NCBI GenBank assembly: GCA_963763615.1
Contig: CAVXPI010000013.1
Coordinates: 718 to 64,717, forward strand
DNA: 64,000 nt
Direction of reading: 5' to 3'
DNA from: Bryobacterales bacterium
GTDB lineage: Bacteria > Acidobacteriota > Terriglobia > Bryobacterales > Bryobacteraceae
In this document: positions 5,360 through 47,846 of the stretch, piece by piece
How positions within the stretch are numbered: the stretch's first letter is position 1
Layout: each line of letters starts with the position of its first letter
Made by a program: the position numbers and the translations under genes
Notes under the pieces: model-generated
What the model saw: only the letters and a program-made list of their open reading frames with translations
What the model was told of the DNA's origin: nothing
Database searches by the model: none

Positions 5360-5607
5360 TTTACAGGATCTGTCATCATTTCAGGATGGTAAAAATGATG
5401 GATTGGAATAGAAAAGGTCCGCTTAAGATCCTGAATTAGTCTGCGCCCACACAATTCTGGGAGGGGCTTCGACCAAACAATATCTGCCTTGATAAGCAAG
5501 GTTGATTCTGGTTCTACTGGGTCTGGATCTGTTATTTCAACTTTATAAAACCGGAGAACCTGTAAAACGGTAACTCGCTGCACTTCCCCGGTTTCTGAGA
5601 TAAACAT
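5356..5607 (-). CDS. Hypothetical protein (83 aa) in the AT-richer islet.
   Basis: The ORF lies 6 nt downstream of the 5614-6054 gene on the same strand. I recognise no motif. Confidence 0.35.
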   Translation of the reverse strand: MFISETGEVQRVTVLQVLRFYKVEITDPDPVEPESTLLIKADIVWSKPLPELCGRRLIQDLKRTFSIPIHHFYHPEMMTDPVN

Positions 5608-5613
5608 TTAATC

Positions 5614-6054
5614 CTAGGCCGCTACTGGCTCTGGAGACTCAATTGCGTATTCAATACCTTCAAATGGTAATAAGTCGCTGGTGCTATCCGAAAACATTTC
5701 GTGAATTGACACGCAATCATAGGTCAGGTTTGTTTTAGCCTTTGTTTTCCATAGATCTCTCCAGATTTCGTTGGGAACGACCCGCAATAGGCCGTCTATG
5801 CCACCAAACATTGTCAGGTGATGTTGGATGCTTGCCGCCAATCCCTTGGCAAACTTATCCTTTGCATCTTCAATATCGTTGCCCTGAACGGCGTAATCTA
5901 TTTCAAATCCTTGAGCAAACCAAAAGCGGCCATCTGGAACTATTAAAACGTGGAGCTTCCATATCCCGACACCGTGCAAATGTGCCTCGGCATCAGCCAG
6001 ATGGGCCGCGCCTGCTCCTGATTTCGTTACCTTAAGATTCTTCGTTTCGATCAT
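5614..6054 (-). CDS. Hypothetical protein, possibly HicB-like antitoxin fold (146 aa from the internal ATG).
   Basis: ATG at 6054 is preceded by AAGAGGAAG. The segment LHVLIVPDGRFWFAQGFEIDYAVQGNDIEDAKDKFAKGLAASIQHHL resembles the HicB N-terminal pattern as I recall it. No search was done. Confidence 0.45.
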   Translation of the reverse strand: MIETKNLKVTKSGAGAAHLADAEAHLHGVGIWKLHVLIVPDGRFWFAQGFEIDYAVQGNDIEDAKDKFAKGLAASIQHHLTMFGGIDGLLRVVPNEIWRDLWKTKAKTNLTYDCVSIHEMFSDSTSDLLPFEGIEYAIESPEPVAA

Positions 6055-6244
6055 TGTGGCTTCCTCTTTCGTGCTCTGACCTCTCGTTCTCTTCTGGCTT
6101 AAACTCAAACCCTCCATCTTTTTTATCGGCCGCCGCTTTAGGGACCGATACAATCATCGCTGCGAACTTCCGCAATCGCTCAAACGGGCTGGCATTAGCG
6201 TCTAGGCCCGGAACTTCCTGAATGGAGCGTGGCCTCATCGCCAA
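6032..6244 (-). CDS. Small hypothetical protein (70 aa), first gene of the minus-strand islet operon.
   Basis: The ORF overlaps the start of the next gene by 23 nt. The FERLRKFAAMIVSVPKAAADKK pattern resembles small TA-associated proteins. Support is weak. Confidence 0.25.
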   Translation of the reverse strand: MAMRPRSIQEVPGLDANASPFERLRKFAAMIVSVPKAAADKKDGGFEFKPEENERSEHERGSHNDRNEES

Positions 6245-6711
6245 CGCCCCAAAGGGCTGTGGTAGCAGCCCCGATAGTTTCTCTTTTATATACCAAACTT
6301 GTGAAGGACATCGCCAACCAGTTTCCTTATCCCAGATGTGCTCCTGTGCAGAACTCCATCCGCCTGACTTGACGTGTTGCCAGCCGATAGCAAAGCAAAG
6401 CAGTGGCGTTTACGACCAACAGATTCAAGCTTATCATGGAATATTGCCTATACCTGGGTATTGGCGGCCTGCCACGCCAAGTCACTCGTACTAGTCTCCA
6501 CGGATTGTCAAGCAGGTGTCTGTTATCGGCGCGACCAGGCGGCCTGCCAGATCCGTTACTCGAAAACACCCCTAGTACGAGAACTAGACTAAACTATTCG
6601 GGCGGGTCGATTGTTTACTTCTTCCGCGCTCTCTATTAGACTCTGAAAATGTCGGTGGTCGAGGTATGGTCAGAAAGGTCATTCAGCCGGACGTACAGAG
6701 GAAACGAAAAC

Positions 6712-8515
6712 ATGTTTAGAGTTTGGAGCATGACGCTACTTAAGGTCATAACCGTGTGGCTTTGCCTACTTTTCGGTACGACACTCTCGGCGGATGTTCT
6801 CATCACCTCTGGAACCTTCGGTGGAGCTATTCAGTCCGGAAGCAGTGGTCCTGCGAGTAGCATTTCAATCCAAGGCCCAAGTTTCAAACTGACCTGTAGC
6901 GGCCTATTCACTCCCTACGTTTGGTATGCGCGGGAGTCACTTTTTATCCCGGAGCGGCGGTCAACGAGAATTGCACGTTCGGAAGCCTAACCTACAACGG
7001 CATCACGTACAACAACGTTGGGTTGAATCTAAGTTTCACCGGCACTGCGGCCACGACGCCAGGTTATCAGGTGGGGGTGGTTCCAGGGGGAGTGCAAGGC
7101 CAGGTGGCAAATGTCGTATTCTCGATGTCTGGAACAGTCACAACCTTCTCCGATATCGCGACGATTTCCAACATCATTTCTGTTTCTGGCTCGGGGATCT
7201 TCAACGCCCGCGGAGATGCAGGCTTTGCGGGCCTTCAAGGCTTCTCGGGGAGCGCGACATACCAATTCATGCCTTTACCCGCGTTTGTTCAAGACAGCTC
7301 AAGCCAGGGGAATTGGAGTTTGAACTACGGGGGTAACGGATTCCAGATCGTGGTTACTCCACCACGTATAGCTTTACCACCACCGGTACGCAAACCACAC
7401 CTGCTCCGGTGATCTCAAACGTGCTGGTGGGCAACATCACCAACACTTCCGCCACCATCACCTGGACTACCGATCAAGCCTCCTCTTCGCAGGTCCACTA
7501 TGGCCTCACCACGGCTTACACATCGTCCTCGACACTCGATCCGACGCTCGTTACCGCTCACTCAGTGACTTTGACCAACCTTTCGCCAGGCACACCCTAT
7601 GACTTCGATGTAATGTCATCGAACTCTTTGGCCGTCTCGTCAACTTCGACGAACTACACCTTCGCCACCACAGGTTCATCGCCTGGGCCCGTCATCACCC
7701 TTGTCGCCTCCAGTAGCGTCACCAGCGGGACCGCCGTCATTACCTGGACCACCGACCAAGCTTCCTCCTCGCAAGTCAATTACGGCACCACAACGGCCTA
7801 CGGGCAATCTTCTACGCCCAATCCGGCCTTAGTAACGAGTCACTCTGTAATGCTCACCGGCCTGACTCCGAACACAACCTATAACTTCGATGTAGTTTCG
7901 GCGAATTCGTCCAATGTAGCCAGCACCTCCGGCAACTACACCTTCACCACCGCGAGTTCCTCGGCTCCGCCGCCGGTGATTTCGGCTGTGGCGTTCTGGG
8001 GCATCACCAGTTCAGGATTGACCATCTCGTGGTCCACCAACGTGCCGGCGAATACCTCAGTGGCTTTCGGCACCACCAACCAACTCGGCCAAACCAGTCC
8101 CGTGCAGACCGCCCTGACAAACAGCCATGGAGCAACGCTCGCTGGGCTCAGCCCGGGCACGACCTACTACTTCCAGGCGCAATCCGCGGACGTGAACGGC
8201 AACACCGGCTACTCCACCATCTACAGCTTTACAACAATAGCCGGTCCGCCCACCATCTCGGCAGTGACGGCGACACCGGCTGCAAATGGTACAGCCACGA
8301 TTAGTTGGACCACCTCCGCTCCGACTCAAAGCTATGTACAATACGGAACGGCTGCTGGCGTGTACGGACGCTACTCGGCGCTGACCAGCCTGACTACCAC
8401 TCCGCAATGCAAGCTGTCCTATGTGCCCAGCGGTACCATCCATTATCAGGTGGTAAGCACCGATGCCAACGGCAATCAGGTTGTCTCGCCGGATGCTGTG
8501 TTCAACGAGCCTTAA
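6712..8515 (+). pseudogene. Chimeric paralog of the giant repeat protein. It has its own signal peptide and a beta-rich N-domain, followed by a copy of FN3-like modules 6-9, and is interrupted by two frame changes.
   Basis: ATG 6712 follows AGAGGAAA and gives a signal-peptide-like MFRVWSMTLLKVITVWLCLLFGTTLSADV. The reading frame moves from frame 1 to frame 3 near 6930 (..TPYVWYA / GVTFYPGAAVNEN..). It moves from frame 3 to frame 2 near 7350 (..NYGGNGFQIV / GYSTTYSFTTTGTQTTPAPVISN..). The 7352-8515 part parallels 3414-4559 of the giant gene. Confidence 0.6.
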
Positions 8516-38435: not shown

Positions 38436-41400
38436 GTGACGCCTCGCATTGGTTTGTGCCTAATTCTGGCCTCAGTGGTTCAAGGGCAGTCGAATCGGAT
38501 TTCTGGCCCTATCGGCGACTCAGCGCGAGTGGCGCTCTCGGGCCATATTGATCCCAAAGTGGCGGTGGCGAAGGATCTGGGCGCGGTCGACCCGGGGTTT
38601 AGCGTGAACTCGATGGTTTTGCTGCTCAAGCGCTCGGCGGAGCAGCAGCAGGCACTTGAGACATTACTCGCGGAACAGCGCGATCCGAAATCGGCGAATT
38701 ATCATCGATGGCTGAGCGCAGTTCAGTTTGCGGATCGATTTGGGCTAAGCCCTGAAGACTTCGCAAAAGTTGCGGCTTGGATTGAGGCGCAGGGCTTTCA
38801 GATTGAACACCAAGCCGAGGCGCGCAATTGGGTGATGTTTAACGGAACGCCCAGCCAAATCAGCAGCGCGTTTCACACGGAAATCCATAAAGTGGAACTG
38901 GATGGCGTTTCGCACTACGCGAATGTCTCCGACCCGCAGATTCCATTGGCCTTGCGAGATGTAGTGAGCGGTATACAGGGACTGCACAATTTTGAACCGC
39001 CGCCAGCGAGTGAGAACAAGCCAAGGCCTTTGTACACGAATGGCGGCACGGCTTACCTCGGACCCGGCGACTTAGCGGCAGCGTACGATGCCGTACCTCT
39101 TTACAATGCGGGCATCAAAGGGGAGGGGATTAGCATCGCGGTGATTGGGCGTGCGGACTTTGCGATGTCGGACATCGTCGCTTACAAAACTTTGTTCGGC
39201 CTGCCGCTAAATCTGCCACAGACGGTTATGGCTGGCGCGGATCCGGGTTCGGGCAGTCAAGGTGATGTGGCCGAAGCGGAACTTGATTTGGAGATATCTG
39301 GAGGGATTGCGCCCAACGCGGCGATTAAGTATGTGAACTCGCCGAGCGTCATTACATCGGCGATCTACGCGATTGACCAGAACTTAGCGCCGATCATCAC
39401 TTACAGTTACGGTGCTTGTGAGTCGAACAGTACCGTGAGTCCGGCGGCCTGGCAAGGCTATATACAGGAAGCCAACGCAATGGGTATTACGTTTTTCGCC
39501 TCATCGGGCGATGTTGGGCCGGCGGTTTGCGACCGGGGGTCATCGACGGCGACGCACGGCATCACAATGGGGTTGCCTGCGAGCGTTCCTGAAGTGACGT
39601 CGGTGGGGGGTACGCAGATTAGTGGCAATGCTTCGGCGAGCTTTCCGGGCGTTCATAACGAGGTGGCTTGGAACGAAGACGGAATCTATGCTTCGTCAAC
39701 CGGCGGACCCAGCAGCGTTTTTGCAAAACCTTCCTGGCAATCGGGACCTGGCGTGCCTGCCGATGGGAAGCGCGACGTTCCCGATATTGCCTTGGCCGCA
39801 GCCTCTTACCCGGCGGACAATCCGTACGCGACATGTATCGAAGGAGCTTGCGTAGGGGGGAGAGTGAGCGTGGGCGGTGGCACATCCGCAGGGTCGCCGC
39901 TGGCAGCGGGCATTCTCGCTCTAGTCACGCAATACCAGATATCTCATGGCACTCTGAGCGGGCCCGGATTGGGAAATATCAACCCCGGCCTCTACCAGCT
40001 TGTGCAGAACTATCCATTGGCGTTTAGAGACGTGCGTTACGGCAATAACCTGGTGACGTGCACGACTGGCACACCCAACTGCCCGACCGGGGGTTTCGGT
40101 TATAACGCCGGACCTGGTTACGATCTTGTAACTGGGTTAGGCGCGTGGGACGCGTACTATCTGGCGACTTCCTGGAAAGCTCCGACGAATAGGGCAGTCT
40201 CTTCCGTATCCATCGCGCCCACAGCGACTGTCTGCGACACTGCGGTGCAACCGGAAACCTACGTGTATTCGGCCACGGTCAGTACGTCTGCGGCGTCTCT
40301 TGGCGGCGACCTTACGTTCTTTAGCGATATTGGCGGCAACCTTGCGAGAGTGGCGGTTTCTTCGTCTGGATCCACGGCAATGGTATCCGTATCGTTTTCG
40401 AAGCCGGACTTCAACGGAGGGACCGTGTATGCTGTGTACTCGGGAGACGACGGTTCACTGGGAACCGTCTCTACGGAAGTTACACCCAGCCCAATCTATC
40501 CGAATCCTTTGTTGTCTCTTTCGTCCACGTCGCTCTCTGTAATGCCGGGAGTTCCGCTGCTATTAACCGCCTCGTCGCCTGCGTTATGCGGGCCGTTATC
40601 GCAGACAGTTGGGTTTGTCGATCAGTACAATAATGTGCTCTTCCAAGGGAATCAAGGCGGAGCGGGAAGTCTCACATTTAACGCGAACAGTTTGGCGCCG
40701 GGCAGTTATCGAATCACAGCCACTTACAACGGGGGCAACTCTTCTAACACATTGTCTATCAGTATCGCGGACACAGCCAATCCAGGATACTCGTTGAAAG
40801 TGATGGCCGGCGGCAATAGCAGCTATAGCGATACTGGGGACGGAGGCCCCGCCACTGCGGCAACGTTTCAAGATCTTTGGAGTGTGGCAGTTGACGGCAA
40901 TGGAAACACCTTTGTGACGAACCCATTGTGCTGCATCCGGCGCATAGATTCCGCCGGTATCATCACGACTTACGCAACGAATGCGAATGCCAGTAGCTTA
41001 GCCACCGCCCCGGATGGAACTTTGTACACGATTAGCGGATACATGGTTTACAAGATTGTAAACGGGGCGCTGGTTGCTGTAGCGGGGACCGGAGCGCAAT
41101 CTGGATCGTACCAAGGCGACGGCACGCCTGCCTTATCGGCTAACATTTACCCCGAGGCGATAACGGTGGGGCCGGATGGAACCTTATTTATTGCGGATTT
41201 TTCAGCGGGACGAATTTTTCGCGTCGCTAACGGCAATCTTTATACCGTGGCCGGGGGTGGCCAAACGCCGATAGCCGAGGGAGTGGCTGCCAGATCAGCG
41301 TCTTTCGATCCGCTTCGCATCGGTGTGGATGGCGGTGGACTGATGTACCTGGCTGCGTTTGTGGGCGGAACGAACGGGTATTTCGTATACCGAATCGACA

Positions 41401-42884
41401 GCGGCGGAATTTTTCACGTGTTGGCAGGCAATGCAACCGCATCCTACGCCGCCGCAGATCGCCCGGCACTCTCGACGCCGTTTCCAAATATGAGTGCCAT
41501 GGCAGTGGATGCTCAGGGAAATGTTTTCGTGGCCGATGGCGGGAATTATGGAGAATCGCCGACAGTCTGGAGGATCTCTAATGGGCAAGCGATTAGGGTT
41601 GCGGGCAACGGCACCGCAGGTACACAAGCAAGCCAGAACGCTTTGCTCGGCCAGTTACAGCGTCCCGTCGCTATGACCGTAGACTCAAAAGGCAATGTTT
41701 ATGTCGCGAATGGGGGTGTTCTATATCCAGTGTTGCAGCTCCTGCAACCGTATTCCGCAACGCTGAGCACGCCGCTTCGCTTTGTGCCTGTTACGCCGTG
41801 CCGGGTTGCCGACACCCGCTCGAATTCCCCTACATTCGGAGGCACGCTGGCGGCGCAGACTTCACGAGATTTTCCCATCACTGCCAGTGCCTGCGGCATT
41901 CCGGCAACGGCGCAGGCCTACTCACTCAATCTAACGGCCGTTCCGCCGAACGGTATCAGCTACCTTTCATTGTGGCCGACCAATCTGCCGCAGCCTTTCG
42001 TTTCCATCTTGAATTCGGACGGGCGGGTGAAGGCCAACGCCGCCATCCTGCGTGCGGGCGACAACAATAGCGTCAGTGTCTACACGACAGACACGACAGA
42101 CGTAGTTCTGGATATCAATGGGTATTTTGTTCCAGCCACGAATAACTCGTCGGCGCTTGAGTTCTATCCACTTACTCCGTGCCGCGTTGCCGACACGCGC
42201 AACGCTAGCGGTCCGCTGGGAGGGCCGATTTTGCGCTCGGGTCAAACGCGGACGTTCCCAATGCTTTCCAGTTCCTGCGGCATTTCTTCCGCTGCGCGGG
42301 CTTATTCGCTCAATTTTACGGCTGTACCTCCAGGTGGAGTTGGTTACTTGTCGACGTGGCCGGCGGGTTCGGCGCAGCCAGTTGTATCAACTCTGAATTC
42401 ACCCGGCGCTATCGTGGCCAATGCGGCGATTGTTCCGGCCGGTATAAACGGCGACATTGCGGTCTATAGCAGCGACAATACGCATGTCGTGATTGATATC
42501 GACGGTTATTTTGCACCCGCCAGTTCTAGCGGGCTGTCTTTATACACCATGCTCCCGTGCCGCGCTCTCGACACGCGCAATCCAGCAGGTAGCGCCCCTT
42601 TCAATGGAACAATTATTGCCAATCTTTCGAATAGCGGTTGTGCGGTACCGAGTAGCGCGCAAGCTTTTGTGATGAATGCGACTGTGGTGCCGCCCAGTGG
42701 ATTTGGCTATCTCACCCTTTGGCCGGATTTACAGACGAAGCCGTTGGTCTCTACGCTGAATGCATTCGATGGCAAGATTACTTCAAATTTGGCGATTGTT
42801 CCATCGGCAAACGGGTCGGTTGATGCGTTTGGCTCGAGTCCGGTTTATTTGATTCTCGATTTGTCTGGATATTTTGCGCCTTAG
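38436..42884 (+). CDS. 1482-aa secreted sedolisin (S53 peptidase with pro-kumamolisin-type activation domain) + Ig-like domains + NHL repeats + three tandem 127-aa Cys-pair domains.
   Basis: It has a signal peptide from a GTG start and a pro-domain (..HYANVSDPQIPLAL..GLHNF). The catalytic motifs are AELDLEISGG, FASSGDVG and GGGTSAGSPLAAG. NHL-like units include GDGGPATAATFQDLWSVAVDGNGNTFVTN. C-terminal repeats start at about 41772, 42153 and 42534, each with TPCRVADTRN...CG(I/V)P...GY(F)(V/A)P. Confidence 0.88.
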   Translation: MTPRIGLCLILASVVQGQSNRISGPIGDSARVALSGHIDPKVAVAKDLGAVDPGFSVNSMVLLLKRSAEQQQALETLLAEQRDPKSANYHRWLSAVQFADRFGLSPEDFAKVAAWIEAQGFQIEHQAEARNWVMFNGTPSQISSAFHTEIHKVELDGVSHYANVSDPQIPLALRDVVSGIQGLHNFEPPPASENKPRPLYTNGGTAYLGPGDLAAAYDAVPLYNAGIKGEGISIAVIGRADFAMSDIVAYKTLFGLPLNLPQTVMAGADPGSGSQGDVAEAELDLEISGGIAPNAAIKYVNSPSVITSAIYAIDQNLAPIITYSYGACESNSTVSPAAWQGYIQEANAMGITFFASSGDVGPAVCDRGSSTATHGITMGLPASVPEVTSVGGTQISGNASASFPGVHNEVAWNEDGIYASSTGGPSSVFAKPSWQSGPGVPADGKRDVPDIALAAASYPADNPYATCIEGACVGGRVSVGGGTSAGSPLAAGILALVTQYQISHGTLSGPGLGNINPGLYQLVQNYPLAFRDVRYGNNLVTCTTGTPNCPTGGFGYNAGPGYDLVTGLGAWDAYYLATSWKAPTNRAVSSVSIAPTATVCDTAVQPETYVYSATVSTSAASLGGDLTFFSDIGGNLARVAVSSSGSTAMVSVSFSKPDFNGGTVYAVYSGDDGSLGTVSTEVTPSPIYPNPLLSLSSTSLSVMPGVPLLLTASSPALCGPLSQTVGFVDQYNNVLFQGNQGGAGSLTFNANSLAPGSYRITATYNGGNSSNTLSISIADTANPGYSLKVMAGGNSSYSDTGDGGPATAATFQDLWSVAVDGNGNTFVTNPLCCIRRIDSAGIITTYATNANASSLATAPDGTLYTISGYMVYKIVNGALVAVAGTGAQSGSYQGDGTPALSANIYPEAITVGPDGTLFIADFSAGRIFRVANGNLYTVAGGGQTPIAEGVAARSASFDPLRIGVDGGGLMYLAAFVGGTNGYFVYRIDSGGIFHVLAGNATASYAAADRPALSTPFPNMSAMAVDAQGNVFVADGGNYGESPTVWRISNGQAIRVAGNGTAGTQASQNALLGQLQRPVAMTVDSKGNVYVANGGVLYPVLQLLQPYSATLSTPLRFVPVTPCRVADTRSNSPTFGGTLAAQTSRDFPITASACGIPATAQAYSLNLTAVPPNGISYLSLWPTNLPQPFVSILNSDGRVKANAAILRAGDNNSVSVYTTDTTDVVLDINGYFVPATNNSSALEFYPLTPCRVADTRNASGPLGGPILRSGQTRTFPMLSSSCGISSAARAYSLNFTAVPPGGVGYLSTWPAGSAQPVVSTLNSPGAIVANAAIVPAGINGDIAVYSSDNTHVVIDIDGYFAPASSSGLSLYTMLPCRALDTRNPAGSAPFNGTIIANLSNSGCAVPSSAQAFVMNATVVPPSGFGYLTLWPDLQTKPLVSTLNAFDGKITSNLAIVPSANGSVDAFGSSPVYLILDLSGYFAP

Positions 42885-43364
42885 GTGTGCCAATGAAACT
42901 GGCGAATCTAGTGGAATGAAAGGAATCCACCATGTGAATTACCCGTTCAACATGTAGTTGCGCGAGCGAGCGTCGGAGCAATCCGGCGAGTCGAAGCCTC
43001 GCAAAACGAACCTGCGAGCCGTAAAGCAGTTAAACCCGATTCGGCCTCGTGACGCTAAGTGAAGGACGGCCAGCCTGCCTAAGATGGTGAAGCCTGCCAC
43101 CGGTGGAGAAGAAACGGGAGTTGTGCATCCACTGGGCCTTCCGGGGTGGTTGGGGACAGCGCGCAGGGAAAGATTCGTCGAGGAACCTGGGAGATCCGGC
43201 GGCACGGCACGGGAAACCGGGCCAGCAAACTGCGGGAATCCATAACCGTGGAGTGGTGCCGGCCGGAAGTCGGTGAGGCCCGTAGTAGCGGAGAAACGGG
43301 GTAACGCCCGTGGAGCCAAGGGGCCTTACGAAAAGCATGTGATGTAAGAGGAAAGGAGAACCGC

Positions 43365-43721
43365 TTGGAGAAAACTCCCACTACGGAAGACCGGGAAACC
43401 GGGAAACTCTCTTTGCTGAGACAGAAACTCAATCAAAAGGCGAAGCAGGAACCGAAGTTCCGGTTTTATGCATTAATCGACCGGATCTATCGGAGCGATG
43501 TGCTGGAGGAGGCATGGCACCGGGTGCGCGCCAACAAGGGCGCGCCTGGCGTGGACGGCGTGACGATCCAACAGATCGAAACGTCGGAAGCGGGGTTGCA
43601 GAAATGGCTGGATGATATCCAAACAGAGCTGCGCACTAAAACCTACCGCCCTTCAGCCGTACGACGCGTCTGGATTCCAAAGGCTAATGGGAAGCAACGT
43701 CCGTTGGGAATTCCGACGGTG
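43365..43721 (+). pseudogene. Group II intron reverse transcriptase/maturase, N-terminal fragment.
   Basis: It reads ..[38 protein letters not shown]...[26 protein letters not shown], and homology then breaks at 43721. Confidence 0.85.
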
Positions 43722-43724
43722 GCT

Positions 43725-45814
43725 TCATATTGCACCTCGCGCAGGCTGGTTTAGGACTGCGTTGTGATTCTGTATTTTGCTAGAGTGGCGTACCCAATCG
43801 CGAAGGCGTTGTTCGTCTGGCGGGCTGAGTGTAATCCAATAAGGACTCCCCGAGTTCGTTCGGCGCGCCTGGATCACGCCGTGTGTGATCCAGTAGTAGA
43901 CGACGTTTTCGCTAACTGCGAAGTCAGCGGCCACTTGTTGAACCGTTAACTCCTCGGGCTTGCGAAGCACGGCCGGCGCGATCTTATGACGGCACCGAAT
44001 CCACTGGATGATTTTCACTGTATATGGCTTACCGGTGGCACTAACAACCTTTTCTCGATTGAGCTGTTCCGCGATTTGCGCGTCAGGCAAGATGCGAGCC
44101 AGATCGCGAACCCGATCGACAATCGCGGTTGGATATCTTACTTGGTCGGCAACGCGCGGCGGCAGCGGCACGGTGAGATCGCTGCAGGCGCCCCCTGCCA
44201 ACGGATGTGAACGGAGAGCTTCTTTTCCGTGAGCGATTTGGCAACCGTGATGTCTTTGACGAGTAGTCGCAGCATACGCTTGCGATCCTTGGCCTGAGTA
44301 GTGGGAGCATGCCACAAGCGAGGTAAATCTCTGGCTAACGCCAGCACTTTGGCTTTTTGCTCGGGGGTAGCGACGTGGGCTTCTTGTCGCTGAACCTCGG
44401 CGGCCTGCTTTTTGAGATCTTCCCAGTGAAGCAAGGCCTCATTCCAGCGACGTTCCAGTGTGCCCGCTACCAGACGATTCGATGGGTCTACTTCCTGATA
44501 GCGCCGTTCGGCGAGAGCGGCTTCATATTGAGCGCGCTCCAGTCGCATCTGCCATTGGCGGAGGATCGTCTGGTCGCGCGACTCCAACTCTCGCAGAGCT
44601 GCCAATGCGAGTTCTAACTCGGCTGGTTGAAGAGCCCGCAACACTTGTTCAGTGATCGCGCCATCCAGCAGGTTACAGCGAAAGCTCTGGCAATCTTTGG
44701 TCGCCAAGCCTTCCCGACGTAACCAGTTGCACAGATAAATCGGATAGATGCCGCCGTTGCCGGTATAGCGCACAGTTAGAGCCCGTCCGCAATGACCGCA
44801 CAACAACAACCCTTGCAGTAAAGCCAAGCCTTCGCGTGCCGCGCCACTCAGCAGCATATCGTCACCGTTGGTGCGGTTCTTTTCTAAGCGGCGTTGATTT
44901 TCAAAAAACTCTTCCAAACTGATGTATCCCTCGTGATGCTGTTGCAAGTTCACGCGCCAATTCGGCATAGCGACTGCATGCATCCGCTGGCAAACTTCAC
45001 CCTGCGGGCTGATTTCGCGGCGATACTGATAGCGGCCAAAAACATACATGCCAGCATAGGATGGATTTTTGAGCAAGCCGAGTACACGCGAGTGACTCAG
45101 CCGCCCCCATATAATCTTGCCATCCCAAGCCCCACCATAAGCCCGTTTGGGAAATCGCAAAGCGCCTTTCACGAAGCGCTGCATCACAGCATAGGCGGTA
45201 CCCGTTTCGCGAAAGATGCGAAACACCAGCGCCACTGCTCCCCGCACTTCTTCATCGGGATCCAAAGTGATGCGGCCTTGTTCGTCGTAGCTAAAACCAA
45301 CGGGCAGTGGAAAACGCAACTCGCCTTTCTTGGCTTTGTTGAGCTTACCGCCTTGGAGGCGCGCGCGCAGGAAATGGAGTTCTGCCTGCGCCATGGTGCC
45401 CTTCAATCCGAGCACCAGACTGTCGTTGAAATCGGCTGGATCGTAGCAGCCATCTTCGTCGATGACGAGCGTCTGGGTGAGGGCACATAGCTCCAACAGT
45501 CGATGCCAATCCAAGTTCGAGCGTGCCAGTCGCGAGGCTTCCAAAGCAAACACCGCGCCCACTTGCCCCATCGAAACATCCGCTACCAAGGTCTTGAAGT
45601 CCTCGCGCCTGGTCATCTCCGTACCCGTCTTCCCCAGGTCCCGGTCGAGGATGCGAATCGCGGTCTCGCTCCATCCCAACTGCAGCGCCATCTCCCGCAA
45701 CGCGTACTGACGCTCGGTACTCTCCTGATGGTGGCGCACTTGGCCCGGCGTTGACTGACGCAGATAAATGTAGGCAGGTTTGCTCCGGTGCTGTTCTGCA
45801 ATCTTTGAGTTCAT
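43725..45814 (-). pseudogene. Large serine recombinase with an apparent 1-nt frameshift in a homopolymer.
   Basis: ATG 45814 is preceded by GGAGGTGG. The resolvase-type N-domain reads AYIYLRQSTPGQ...FALEASRLARS, followed by recombinase and zinc-ribbon regions (CGHCGRAL). The frame ends ...HIRWQGAPAAIS..* at 44138. The adjacent frame continues GGACSDLTVPLPP...VDRVRDLARILPDAQIAEQLN... to 43725. The switch is at the C5 run 44191-44195 (plus strand). Confidence 0.75.
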
Positions 45815-45950
45815 CGGCCACCTCCGCCGCGGTGAAGAAGTGCGGGTCGCTGGCGAGCCACGCTTCGAGCATATTGGCGAGGAGCACACCACCCAACCCG
45901 GCATCCAGCGGGGCGGGAAGAGTGGGGAGTGCTGTGCTCACAACGATCCT

Positions 45951-46289
45951 TTACAGCGCCTCGCGGCGGCGCAGGAGTTCGCGGTTGATCTCGCAGATCT
46001 GTCCTAAGAGCTCGCGCGCTCGCTGGTAGTTGGCCAGGAACTCGCTGGCCTGCTCGAAGCACTCCTGCGGCACATAATCCATTTGCGGCCGCAGGCCCGG
46101 GTAGCTTACCGAAAGATAATACTTGGGACCATGACCGCGGCCATCGGCACACTTGCATCCGAGCTTGCCGCAGCGTTTGTAGCGCTCGATGAGAGAGCCA
46201 CGCAGGATGGCATCGAGCGGTGGCAGTTGGCGCAGCAGCGCTTGACGGCGTTTGCGCAAGGCGGCGGTCGATTGTTTTGGTGTTTCCAT
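45951..46289 (-). CDS. Small Cys/Gly-rich protein of the recombinase cassette (resembles the family I recall as DUF6788).
   Basis: It reads ..LRGSLIERYKRCGKLGCKCADGRGHGPKYYLSV.. and is 112 aa. A 7-bp hairpin (CAGACCA...TGGTCTG) lies just upstream of its ATG. Confidence 0.65.
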   Translation of the reverse strand: METPKQSTAALRKRRQALLRQLPPLDAILRGSLIERYKRCGKLGCKCADGRGHGPKYYLSVSYPGLRPQMDYVPQECFEQASEFLANYQRARELLGQICEINRELLRRREAL

Positions 46290-46338
46290 CAGACCACGTA
46301 TATGACTGGTCTGATTGTAATCGATATAAATGCATCTT

Positions 46339-46617
46339 TCAACTCCTTTTATTGACTGACTCGTTGTTATCTAGCTGCTCTAGTAAAGTGACCAATTCCA
46401 AAAGAGAATGGACATCGAGTCGCTGCGGCGCTATGCCGAGCAACTCATAGGCGGACGGATCGGCCCAGTCCGTCCACTCGCGCGCGACACTGACGCTGCC
46501 ACGATCCTGCTGAAGTAGCAAGAGAGTGTCGATGCCTGCAACTTTCCGCTGCTTGAGGACTTCGAAACGCTGGCCTCTGAGTGGATGAAAAGGATGCCGG
46601 ATCTCAGCCCATCCCAA
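46339..46617 (-). CDS. Small protein of the recombinase cassette (resembles the Y4bD/Y4pK, DUF5372-type family).
   Basis: It reads ..[50 protein letters not shown]... The listed ORF start at 46776 lies outside the insert. The only in-element start candidate I see is TTG at 46617, so the start is uncertain. Confidence 0.55.
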
Positions 46618-46654
46618 ATGCGTACCGGGCTCTAGTGCAGTTCGTAGTGACCGT

Positions 46655-47631
46655 CCCGACGGTGCGCGACCGCGTGGTGCAGATGGCCACGCTATTGATC
46701 CTGGAACCAATCTTTGAAGCTGACTTTGAAGATTGCTCCTACGGATTCCGGCCCAACCGGTCGGCCCATCAGGCATTGGACGAGATACGCGGTCATTTAA
46801 AGGCCGGGTATCAGGCGGTCTATGACGCGGACCTGAAAGGTTACTTCGACTCGATACCGCACGACAAGCTTATGGCTTGTTTGCGGATGCGGATCACGGA
46901 CCGGAGTGTCCTGCAACTCATCCGAATGTGGCTGGAAAGTCCAGTCGTAGAAGGAGGAGGAAGCAGTGGCGAGCCGGAGAAGTGGCGCCGCGCAGTGAAG
47001 GGGACGCCGCAAGGAGGGGTAATCTCTCCGTTGCTGGCCAACCTGTACCTGCACTGGTTCGACAAAGTGTTTTGTCGAAGTAGGGAAGCGGCAAAGGCGA
47101 AGGCCAAACTGGTGCGATACGCGGATGACTGTGTCGTCCTGGCGCCGCGCTTCGTGGGGCCGGAACTGAACCGATTTATCGAGGACAAACTGGAGACCTG
47201 GCTCGGGTTGGAGATCAATCGAGAGAAAACGCGGGTGGTCAACCTGAAGGAGGACAGAGCAAGCCTTGACTTTCTGGGCTTCACGTTCCGGTACCACAAC
47301 GACCTGAAGGGTCAAGGGTATCGGTATCTGAATGTTTCACCGTCGGCCAAAGCGCTGAAGAAGGAAAGGGAGAAACTACGCGAACTGACCAATGTCAGCC
47401 AGACGTATGTGCCGCTTCCCACCCTGATTCAGCACCTCAACCGGCACCTGGACGGGTGGGCCAACTACTTCCGCTTCGGATACCCGCGCGTGGCCTTTCG
47501 CGAAATCAACTGGTACGTTCGTGACCGGCTCAAGCACCACCTGAGCCCGGCGCAGCCAGCGGCCCTTCCGACCGCCGGAAGGGAGCAGCTACTACGACCA
47601 TCTCGACAAACTCGGGCTTCGGTATCTGTAG
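46655..47631 (+). pseudogene. Group II intron reverse transcriptase/maturase, C-terminal fragment with a 1-nt frameshift near the 3' end.
   Basis: It reads [41 protein letters not shown]...[17 protein letters not shown]...[12 protein letters not shown] (YADD)...[10 protein letters not shown]. After ..RLKHHLS the adjacent frame reads [27 protein letters not shown], ending at TAG 47629-47631. This implies an extra C in the CCC at 47546-47548. Confidence 0.8.
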
Positions 47632-47681
47632 GCTGTTCCGCGCAACTGCCTGAATACGTCTGCGATGAAGCGCTTTTCGGA

Positions 47682-47714
<33 letters not shown>

Positions 47715-47846
47715 GATGAGGGGGGAGTGGACCGCGCCTTACCGCGTCGTCCTCTCTCCTACTCTACCTACGTGAGAGCGGTCCGCAAAGGCTGTGCTTA
47801 ACTATGGAAGAAGGAAACCGCGCTCGTTTCCAACACGGAGTTCAAC

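Follow-up and report, generated by a model that had tools for sequence, protein, structure and literature searches.

The window analysed here is a stretch of 64,000 nucleotides from a contig of a Bryobacterales bacterium (CAVXPI010000013.1). It contains a group II intron whose reverse transcriptase (RT) gene is split by an insert of 2941 bp, which encodes on the opposite strand a large serine recombinase (LSR) and two small proteins of the families DUF5372 and DUF6788 (Table 1). The insert is very probably a compact autonomous element of ~2.93 kb, comparable to an insertion sequence (IS), which has the LSR as its only recombination enzyme and which targets a conserved motif of the RT by means of a 2-bp crossover.

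The sequences flanking the insert match the Pfam families RVT_1 and GIIM, i.e. an RT with a maturase domain as is characteristic of group II introns. Rfam detected domains 5 and 6 of such an intron (Intron_gpII, RF00029) at 47680-47767 with 54 bits, and a weak match to group-II-D1D4-4 (42912-43029, E 4e-5) which remains under the gathering score, so that domains 1-4 are seen at a sub-threshold level only. The first-pass annotation of this DNA had described a mobile element precisely inserted within a mobile element, which was borne out, and had suggested looking for empty sites and excised circles. The RT reading frame is restored when 2943 bp, the 2941-bp element and one CC dinucleotide, are taken out, and intact RTs with 94-99% identity to the rebuilt RT are present in public data (P0241-P0248, with P0242 reaching 99%), so that the empty site is real. 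Contigs carrying the joined ends of related elements were also found in databases and are described below. Comparison with the intact RTs revealed an extra C near 47546 (47532-47560) in the window RT, which reads AGCCCGGCG where AGCCGGCG is expected. By this the last ~35 codons are out of frame and the normal C-terminus is exchanged for an unrelated 80-aa tail. The extra C may be a second lesion of a really decaying intron or a homopolymer sequencing error. Both the element and the intron are present only once in the 64-kb window. At its 5' end (GTGTG, region 42882-42890) the intron adjoins the TAG stop of a 1482-aa open reading frame (ORF) ranging from 38436 to 42884.

The identities given for the three genes of the insert by the first-pass annotation were confirmed by Pfam, which assigned DUF5372 (PF17342, E 5e-24), DUF6788 (PF20586, E 1e-29) and, for the LSR, an N-terminal catalytic domain (PF00239, E 3e-19) followed by the Recombinase domain (PF07508, E 1e-9) and a zinc ribbon (PF13408, E 3e-10). 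The catalytic domain contains the motif YxRxSTxxQ, and its residues Y47, R49, S51, T52, and Q55 are invariant in the alignment of homologues. The C-terminal third of the protein carries modules resembling a helix-turn-helix (HTH). Homologues are encoded by a single ORF of ~690 aa, which is intact in 63 of 66 complete relatives of the element, whereas the window LSR has a 1-nt deletion near 44190-44195 and is thereby broken into ORFs of 588 aa (44138-45904) and 196 aa (43725-44315). The alignment of homologues, the frame break in tblastn and a comparison of the indel site agree in placing the deletion in TGGCAGGG(C)GGCGCC, which is one nucleotide short. It may again be real decay or a homopolymer sequencing error; unless it is the latter, the window copy is probably non-autonomous because its recombinase is frameshifted. 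The ends of the element are kept in the 66 complete relatives, most of which have a size of 2914-2966 bp, and on the coding strand the window element is flanked on both sides by GG, i.e. by CC on the plus strand at 43713-43714 and 46656-46657.

For DUF6788 the AlphaFold 2 model (mean confidence score, pLDDT, of 91) consists of a helix, a cysteine-rich sheet and a long helix, and a fold search against the PDB gave no match under E 0.4. The DUF5372 model is a small beta-barrel with a helix; its search against the PDB yielded nothing significant, with weak KOW/SH3-like matches at E ~0.01. NCBIfam provides no name for either of the two small proteins. A promoter-like site of the sigma-70 type between the two genes, matching at 10 of 12 positions, is the sole match of the promoter scan inside the element. 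This site and the palindrome next to it are both kept across the clade, and the palindrome, which is likely an operator or an RNA hairpin, is kept across phyla. Two ORFs of 174 and 198 aa which overlap the genes of the element in other frames are rich in arginine, alanine and proline and were treated as spurious.

Table 1. Coordinates of the split intron, the inserted element and its parts in the window
Feature	Position	Strand	Remarks
Host group II intron	42885..47790	+	3' end approximate; based on Rfam domains 5/6, the weak D1D4 match and the sequence
RT, N-terminal fragment	43365..43714	+	Ends ...RPLGIP; last bases CC (43713-43714) are copy 1 of the crossover dinucleotide
RT, C-terminal fragment	46656..47801	+	Starts PTVRDRVVQ...; CC at 46656-46657 is copy 2 of the crossover dinucleotide; Pfam RVT_1, GIIM
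LSR element, 2941 bp	43715..46655	-	Coding strand GACGGTCACTAC...GAAGCCACCGTC; imperfect inverted ends
Right end, attP P arm	43715..43736	-	GGTGCAATATGAAGCCACCGTC; block GTGCA, LSR stop and overlapping ATG; from column conservation
LSR stop TGA	43727-43725	-	Overlapped by ATG 43728-43726, which opens the junction-spanning DUF5372 frame
LSR gene	43725..45814	-	MNSKIAEQ... to ...ARGAI*; Pfam Resolvase, Recombinase, Zn_ribbon_recom
DUF6788 gene, 112 aa	45951..46289	-	Pfam PF20586; cysteine cluster CGKLGCKC
Palindrome	46314..46289	-	TCAGACCAGT-N6-ACGTGGTCTGA; perfect 8-bp arms as TCAGACCA-N10-TGGTCTGA; adjoins the DUF6788 ATG
Promoter-like site	46342..46314	-	TTGAAA, 17-nt spacer, TACAAT; internal, within the feature 46289..46342
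DUF5372 gene body	46339..46655	-	Pfam domain from IRHPFHPL; possible internal TTG start at 46617; frame open as far as the end of the element
Left end, attP P' arm	46634..46655	-	GACGGTCACTACGAACTGCAC; blocks GACGGT and AACTGCAC

The flanking repeat and the crossover dinucleotide

The identical 9-mers seen at both junctions by the first-pass annotation are indeed present, with the second copy having been placed one base too low: CCGACGGTG is found at 43713-43721 and at 46656-46664. It occurs three times in the window as compared to 0.87 occurrences expected, which for itself is weak evidence, but its placement at both junctions is not due to chance. The first-pass annotation had considered an identity of 9 bp as surprising for an LSR and had therefore contemplated a different integration chemistry. 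Common cores of more than 2 bp are usual for attP and attB sites of LSRs, and there is no reason for such surprise. When the flanks of other copies were compared as it had suggested, the repeat turned out not to be a fixed 9-mer. Among 56 complete related insertions it ranges from 2 to 12 bp, and what all have in common is the dinucleotide CC, the first two bases of the proline codon in LGIP/TVxDR (the slash marks the break). In 26 of the 56 the repeat is exactly 2 bp long, in five including the window exactly 9 bp, and an identity of at least 8 bp is seen in 14. The adjoining GACGGTG (43715-43721 on the plus strand, CACCGTC on the coding strand) is the conserved terminus of the element and is kept whatever the target reads. 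As judged from the sequences compared, the 9-mer of the window is the 2-bp crossover CC followed by 7 bp in which the end of the element matches the commonest codons for the Thr-Val pair.

As the length of the repeat varies, CC alone is constant and the 7 bp belong to the terminus of the element, the 9-mer does not represent duplicated target DNA. Staggered cleavage and repair, and thus a chemistry other than that of serine recombinases, could generate a true duplication of 9 bp at the target site, and this would account for the two identical 9-mers of the window and for the five relatives with exactly 9 bp. It is nevertheless very improbable in view of the 26 insertions with 2 bp, and a metagenome contig (L001) carries a 99.8%-identical element in a different RT (PTVSDRIAQMVVK) where GG is all it has in common with the flank. 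In addition, no DDE, HUH or tyrosine enzyme encoded by the element was detected with Pfam. The ordinary chemistry of LSRs is sufficient.

A second explanation would be that attP and attB need an identity of ~9 bp as a functionally required extended core. The P arm does correspond to the commonest target codons (CCGACGGTG), and the 14 insertions with an identity of at least 8 bp would fit with such a need. This is improbable all the same, since nearly half of the insertions share the dinucleotide alone and the targets differ at most synonymous positions. The likeness is better read as a resemblance between half-sites, three of the four of which start with GACGGT.

The same arrangement is found in relatives on Burkholderiales plasmids with 70-73% amino acid identity, which are inserted at the same position of the RT. 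On the coding strand their junctions consist of target-GG, the element from GACGGTCA to TCACCGTC, and GG-target, with flanks that vary except for GG. Each copy of this type contains TCACCGTCGG, while the opposite flank reads variously AACAGTTGG, GCAGAGGGG or TACGGTGGG.

Cultured strains with complete plasmids and chromosomes are among the more than 80 independent assemblies which show the same junction architecture. That the junctions of the window are assembly chimeras has hence almost no probability left, even if the window apparently derives from a metagenome assembly and shows two 1-nt indels in a 5-kb stretch; the exactly restored reading frame is a further argument against chimeras.

Target motif and polarity of insertion

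A scan for relatives, which covered one genome per species, yielded 80 further loci with 62-97% identity from Acidobacteriota, Beta-, Gamma- and Deltaproteobacteria, and Spirochaetota. In tblastn searches with the rebuilt window RT as query, RT fragments were found to adjoin both ends at nearly all of these loci, and the RT is interrupted at residues ~111-119. For the 52 insertions with both flanks available the empty site was rebuilt. Forty nine of these sites encode the motif R.LG(I/V)P(T/S/A)(V/I/M)xDRxxQ in frame, in several phyla and in both orientations, in line with homing into a conserved RT motif, one of the explanations offered by the first-pass annotation. Six rebuilt ORFs from diverse hosts proved to be full-length proteins with RVT_1 and GIIM. 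The targeted RTs are widely different, and most of the synonymous positions vary in their DNA; over the 49 distinct sites the consensus reads cGnccgcTnGGnATn-CC-gaCggTgnngGAcCG. The same RT motif is targeted by more distant relatives with 45-47% identity from Nostoc and Streptomyces.

The element lies nearly always inside introns, as it would do if it were cargo of one intron lineage which is spread by retrohoming of the intron. Such passive transport is very improbable, because the same element is found in unrelated RTs and in both orientations, RTs with an empty site and contigs with joined ends of the element exist, insertions also occur in the non-intron genes L037 and L081, and an RT which is split could not serve retrohoming in cis.

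Concerning polarity, 40 of the rebuilt sites carry the element antisense and 12 sense to the RT, and when read in the sense of the RT the dinucleotide is CC throughout. When loci are grouped by the flanking dinucleotide, 55 are antisense (GG on the element strand) and 20 sense (CC). Thus the central dinucleotide tracks the orientation of integration, as expected for an LSR; a single constant dinucleotide common to both junctions, likewise expected, is evident from the comparison of the insertions. In the case of the LSR Bxb1 the orientation of integration depends solely on the central dinucleotide, which is not palindromic. The GG and CC classes are interleaved in the family. Two elements which are 96% identical (L021 and L054) have opposite orientations, and the difference between their cores, GG-G and CC-C, looks like a 3-bp inversion.

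A small group has the palindromic core GC, and its target is the variant GVA/ALEDK of the motif. In one member of this group (L075) the flanks are the same downstream part of two RTs in inverted arrangement, which indicates a rearrangement. At another locus (L020, as compared to L019) the left and right flanks come from two different intron types. The chimeric flanks of L075 and L020 suggest rearrangements between copies of the element.

Joined ends and the DUF5372 reading frame

When the two ends of the element are joined they form the attP site GGTGCAtTATGAaaCCACCGTC-GG-GACGGTCAgcgCGAACTGCAC, an imperfect inverted repeat, each arm of which has the conserved blocks GACGGT at positions 1-6 and TGCAC at positions 17-21. 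Four contigs from the JGI, NCBI, ENA and Logan collections (L093-L096) carry such joined ends with GG or CC cores, in the order LSR 3' end, attP, DUF5372, DUF6788, LSR 5' end, and they fit with the excised circle with attP which is to be expected for an LSR. One of them (L096) has a 30-nt terminal overlap, which yields a circle of 2922 bp.

By analogy with other LSRs the element would excise as a circle, the joined ends of which would form attP, and integration would be a conservative exchange at the 2-bp crossover. The attB site would be the DNA encoding the RT motif R-x-L-G-I-P/T-V-x-D-R, with the CC of the proline codon as the crossover. As CC is not palindromic it would set the polarity, so that with GG in attP the element would integrate in antisense direction, which is the case of the window, and with CC in the sense direction of the RT. 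In the integrated copy the internal promoter and the palindromic operator would drive the expression of DUF6788 and the LSR.

A peculiar feature of these elements is the position of the att site with regard to the DUF5372 gene. At the right end of the element an ATG preceded by a purine-rich stretch overlaps the stop codon of the LSR (ATGA), and this overlap is nearly universal. The frame of this ATG runs across the junction and is in frame with DUF5372. It contains stops in none of 60 distinct elements, as compared to 58 and 20 of 60 for the other two frames. The histidine of HPFHP is always encoded by codon 26 counted from the junction ATG. At an LSR identity of 43-63% this spacing is also found in relatives from Microvirga and Streptomyces and in a clade targeting IS21 elements; the Nostoc relative has one extra codon. 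Four elements contain no internal start codon before the DUF5372 domain. The N-termini given by gene callers for DUF5372 vary widely except on junction contigs, and two DUF5372 proteins in the databases (P0006 and P0078) have N-termini exactly as predicted from the junction. The promoter and the palindrome are located downstream of DUF5372, between it and DUF6788.

Since the ribosome-binding site, the ATG and the first five codons lie at the other end of the element, full-length DUF5372 is probably made from nothing but the excised circle or a head-to-tail tandem. The predicted order in the circle is promoter, DUF6788, LSR, attP and DUF5372, while after integration the body of DUF5372 lies upstream of the promoter and would lack a start. 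DUF5372 would accordingly become the last and translationally coupled gene of an operon in the circle. It might be a circle-specific switch which favours integration or blocks re-excision, and DUF6788 might be an excision factor; both are candidates for recombination directionality factors.

As an alternative, DUF5372 could be an ordinary gene translated from an internal TTG in the integrated copy, with the open frame across the junction being a by-product of the constraints on the att site. This is rather unlikely, though it has several points in its favour. The six codons of the linker in front of LGW are free of third-position bias, which leaves ordinary coding constraint unsupported. At this place the leucine codon reads TTG in 57 of 63 elements; it could serve as an internal start, and because of this a short DUF5372 could be made while the element is integrated. 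PGAP annotates TTG or GTG starts, and in the model the first 20 residues are disordered. Furthermore GTGCA and AACTGCAC are motifs of the attP arms, so that part of the apparent coding conservation is conservation at the DNA level. Against an ordinary gene stand the lack of an evident Shine-Dalgarno sequence before the TTG, where the right-end ATG has its purine-rich stretch, the absence of stops in all 60 elements with a fixed length even in clades with other targets and diverged DNA, the four elements without any internal start, the conserved promoter downstream of DUF5372, and the near universal ATGA overlap with the LSR stop.

These points on the linker also weigh against our interpretation of the element as a whole, and some others have to be added. 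Excision, integration and the exact positions of cleavage are inferred, as are the roles proposed for DUF5372 and DUF6788, to which the fold searches assign no function. Three of the 52 rebuilt sites are not RTs, namely L037, L081 and the left half of L043; the insertion L081 interrupts the gene of a ParB_N-domain protein and L037 an ORF without a family match. The central dinucleotide switches between GG and CC, for which our interpretation does not account. The ends of the joined-end contig L093 overlap with 3 mismatches, and the junction contigs are possibly tandem copies rather than free circles. A scan of JGI metagenome contigs with an attP pattern gave a chance match (L092) only; the pattern demanded TATGA, where L093-L095 read CATGA, and L096, which fits, is part of the Logan collection. 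With regard to the genomes concerned, L037 is located in the same genome as a copy inserted in an RT (L040).

Relation to known systems

With 43-45% identity the LSRs of three rhizobial elements on plasmids of Bradyrhizobium, Sinorhizobium and Mesorhizobium (L089-L091) represent a sister clade. These elements encode DUF5372, an HTH protein and the LSR, share the ATGA overlap and the junction reading frame with the RT-targeting clade, and have no RT flanks. Their flanks are homologous to each other and when rebuilt give an IS21-family transposase (NF033546, 278 bits with a cut-off of 160), with the break point in istA at PARPRRPRDK/AKVE. As this sister clade sits in IS21 transposase genes, the wider family appears to hunt for conserved enzyme motifs of other mobile elements. 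One may tentatively go further and imagine the DUF5372-LSR elements as a large unrecognised superfamily of hyperparasites, with each clade homing to a catalytic-core motif, with the att site in DUF5372 as a directionality switch back to integration and with an excision factor of the DUF6788 type; the case for this broader view is somewhat less than even. LSR relatives are found on 524 plasmid records, most of them rhizobial, and counting cluster representatives at E <= 0.001 gave 1157 for DUF5372 and 2452 for DUF6788.

To phage-type LSRs such as those of Bxb1, phiC31, A118, and SPbeta (SprA) the enzyme is related by its Resolvase/Recombinase/zinc-ribbon architecture, by an attP of ~45 bp in the form of an imperfect inverted repeat, and by a 2-bp non-palindromic crossover which alone sets the polarity and leaves no true target duplication. 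Its best PDB match is SPbeta SprA/YokA with E 1e-7, a very distant one. The element differs from these phages in its size of 2.9 kb and the lack of phage genes, in an additional C-terminal region of ~130 aa with the HTH-like modules, and in having as attB a degenerate coding motif present in thousands of genes rather than one chromosomal locus.

The transposons Tn4451/Tn4453 (TnpX) and Tn5397 (TndX) likewise use an LSR as transposase, pass through a circular intermediate and are bordered by a flanking dinucleotide. Recombinases of the TnpX/TndX type have a C-terminal domain of the DUF4368 type and a relaxed choice of targets, whereas Pfam found no match to DUF4368 in the LSR of the element, and its target choice is highly specific with 49 of 52 sites. 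TnpX/TndX transposons carry resistance or conjugation genes as cargo, in contrast to the element described here with its specific motif in another mobile element. For Tn4451 the formation of the circle reportedly creates a promoter for tnpX (a finding ascribed to Lyras and Rood in the year 2000); here the circle would restore the start codon and ribosome-binding site of an accessory gene instead of a promoter of the recombinase. Junction promoters are also known from IS911, IS2, and IS30, where, as proposed here, the ends cooperate only when joined and give circle-specific expression. In these IS the joined ends supply the transposase gene with a promoter, while the present element would join a translation start to an accessory ORF with the att site in its 5' coding region.

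The fdxN element of Anabaena resembles the window element in that the LSR XisF is accompanied by two small accessory proteins, XisH and XisI, which control the reaction. XisF is even the best NCBIfam match of the LSR (NF041201). Membership in this system was rejected, as the score of 66 bits is far under the cut-off of 375 and the small proteins have no NCBIfam match. The fdxN element is a 55-kb element which is excised during development, is not mobile between sites and has other accessory families. IS607 elements are small, use a serine recombinase and make no target duplication. Their recombinase TnpA, a small one of low target specificity, has a MerR-like HTH at the N-terminus and the catalytic domain at the C-terminus, and often occurs together with TnpB. 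The catalytic domain of the LSR is N-terminal and the intact protein has ~690 aa, so that the element was not assigned to IS607 either.

Insertion at a conserved feature of a mobile element or plasmid, in the way of a safe harbour, is known from the Tn5053/Tn402 'res hunters', from IS1111-attC, from group IIC-attC introns and from RmInt1 in ISRm2011-2. Unlike these systems, the LSR hits coding DNA for a motif in the catalytic core of the victim enzyme, an RT or the IstA of IS21, and inactivates the victim.

No published description of the element was found in the literature covered, which excludes subscription-only papers and ISfinder, and the family is widespread and apparently undescribed. 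While its chemistry is ordinary for LSRs, the minimal three-gene make-up, the homing to an RT motif (and to IstA of IS21 in the sister clade), the att site inside an accessory gene, and an abundance that went unremarked appear to be new. With this family the elements based on LSRs would gain a minimal IS-like class which abounds in soil bacteria and on plasmids. Mobile elements which parasitise others by inactivating the most conserved motif of the victim's enzyme have a bearing on the population dynamics of introns and IS, and also on the frequent annotation of RT and transposase genes as fragments. DUF5372 and DUF6788, both domains without known function, obtain a context linked to function. 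A gene which an att site splits and which excision restores would point to a new principle of regulation. The many natural pairs of attP and attB, whose targets are degenerate yet defined and whose core dinucleotides are swapped in nature, are raw material for the engineering of integrases.

Some relatives are larger than the rest. On the Nostoc plasmid pNPM3 (L007) an additional stretch of ~1.27 kb at 5580-6845, with a 319-aa ORF in the opposite direction, lies between the LSR stop and the right end and is either cargo or a nested insertion. Two further elements (L087 and L088) are also enlarged, to 3.5 kb. The LSR of a Streptomyces plasmid (L008) has 910 aa and contains four C-terminal modules of the form VYYWI..G.L.A....GRW.IPW, as compared to one or two in the clade of the window.

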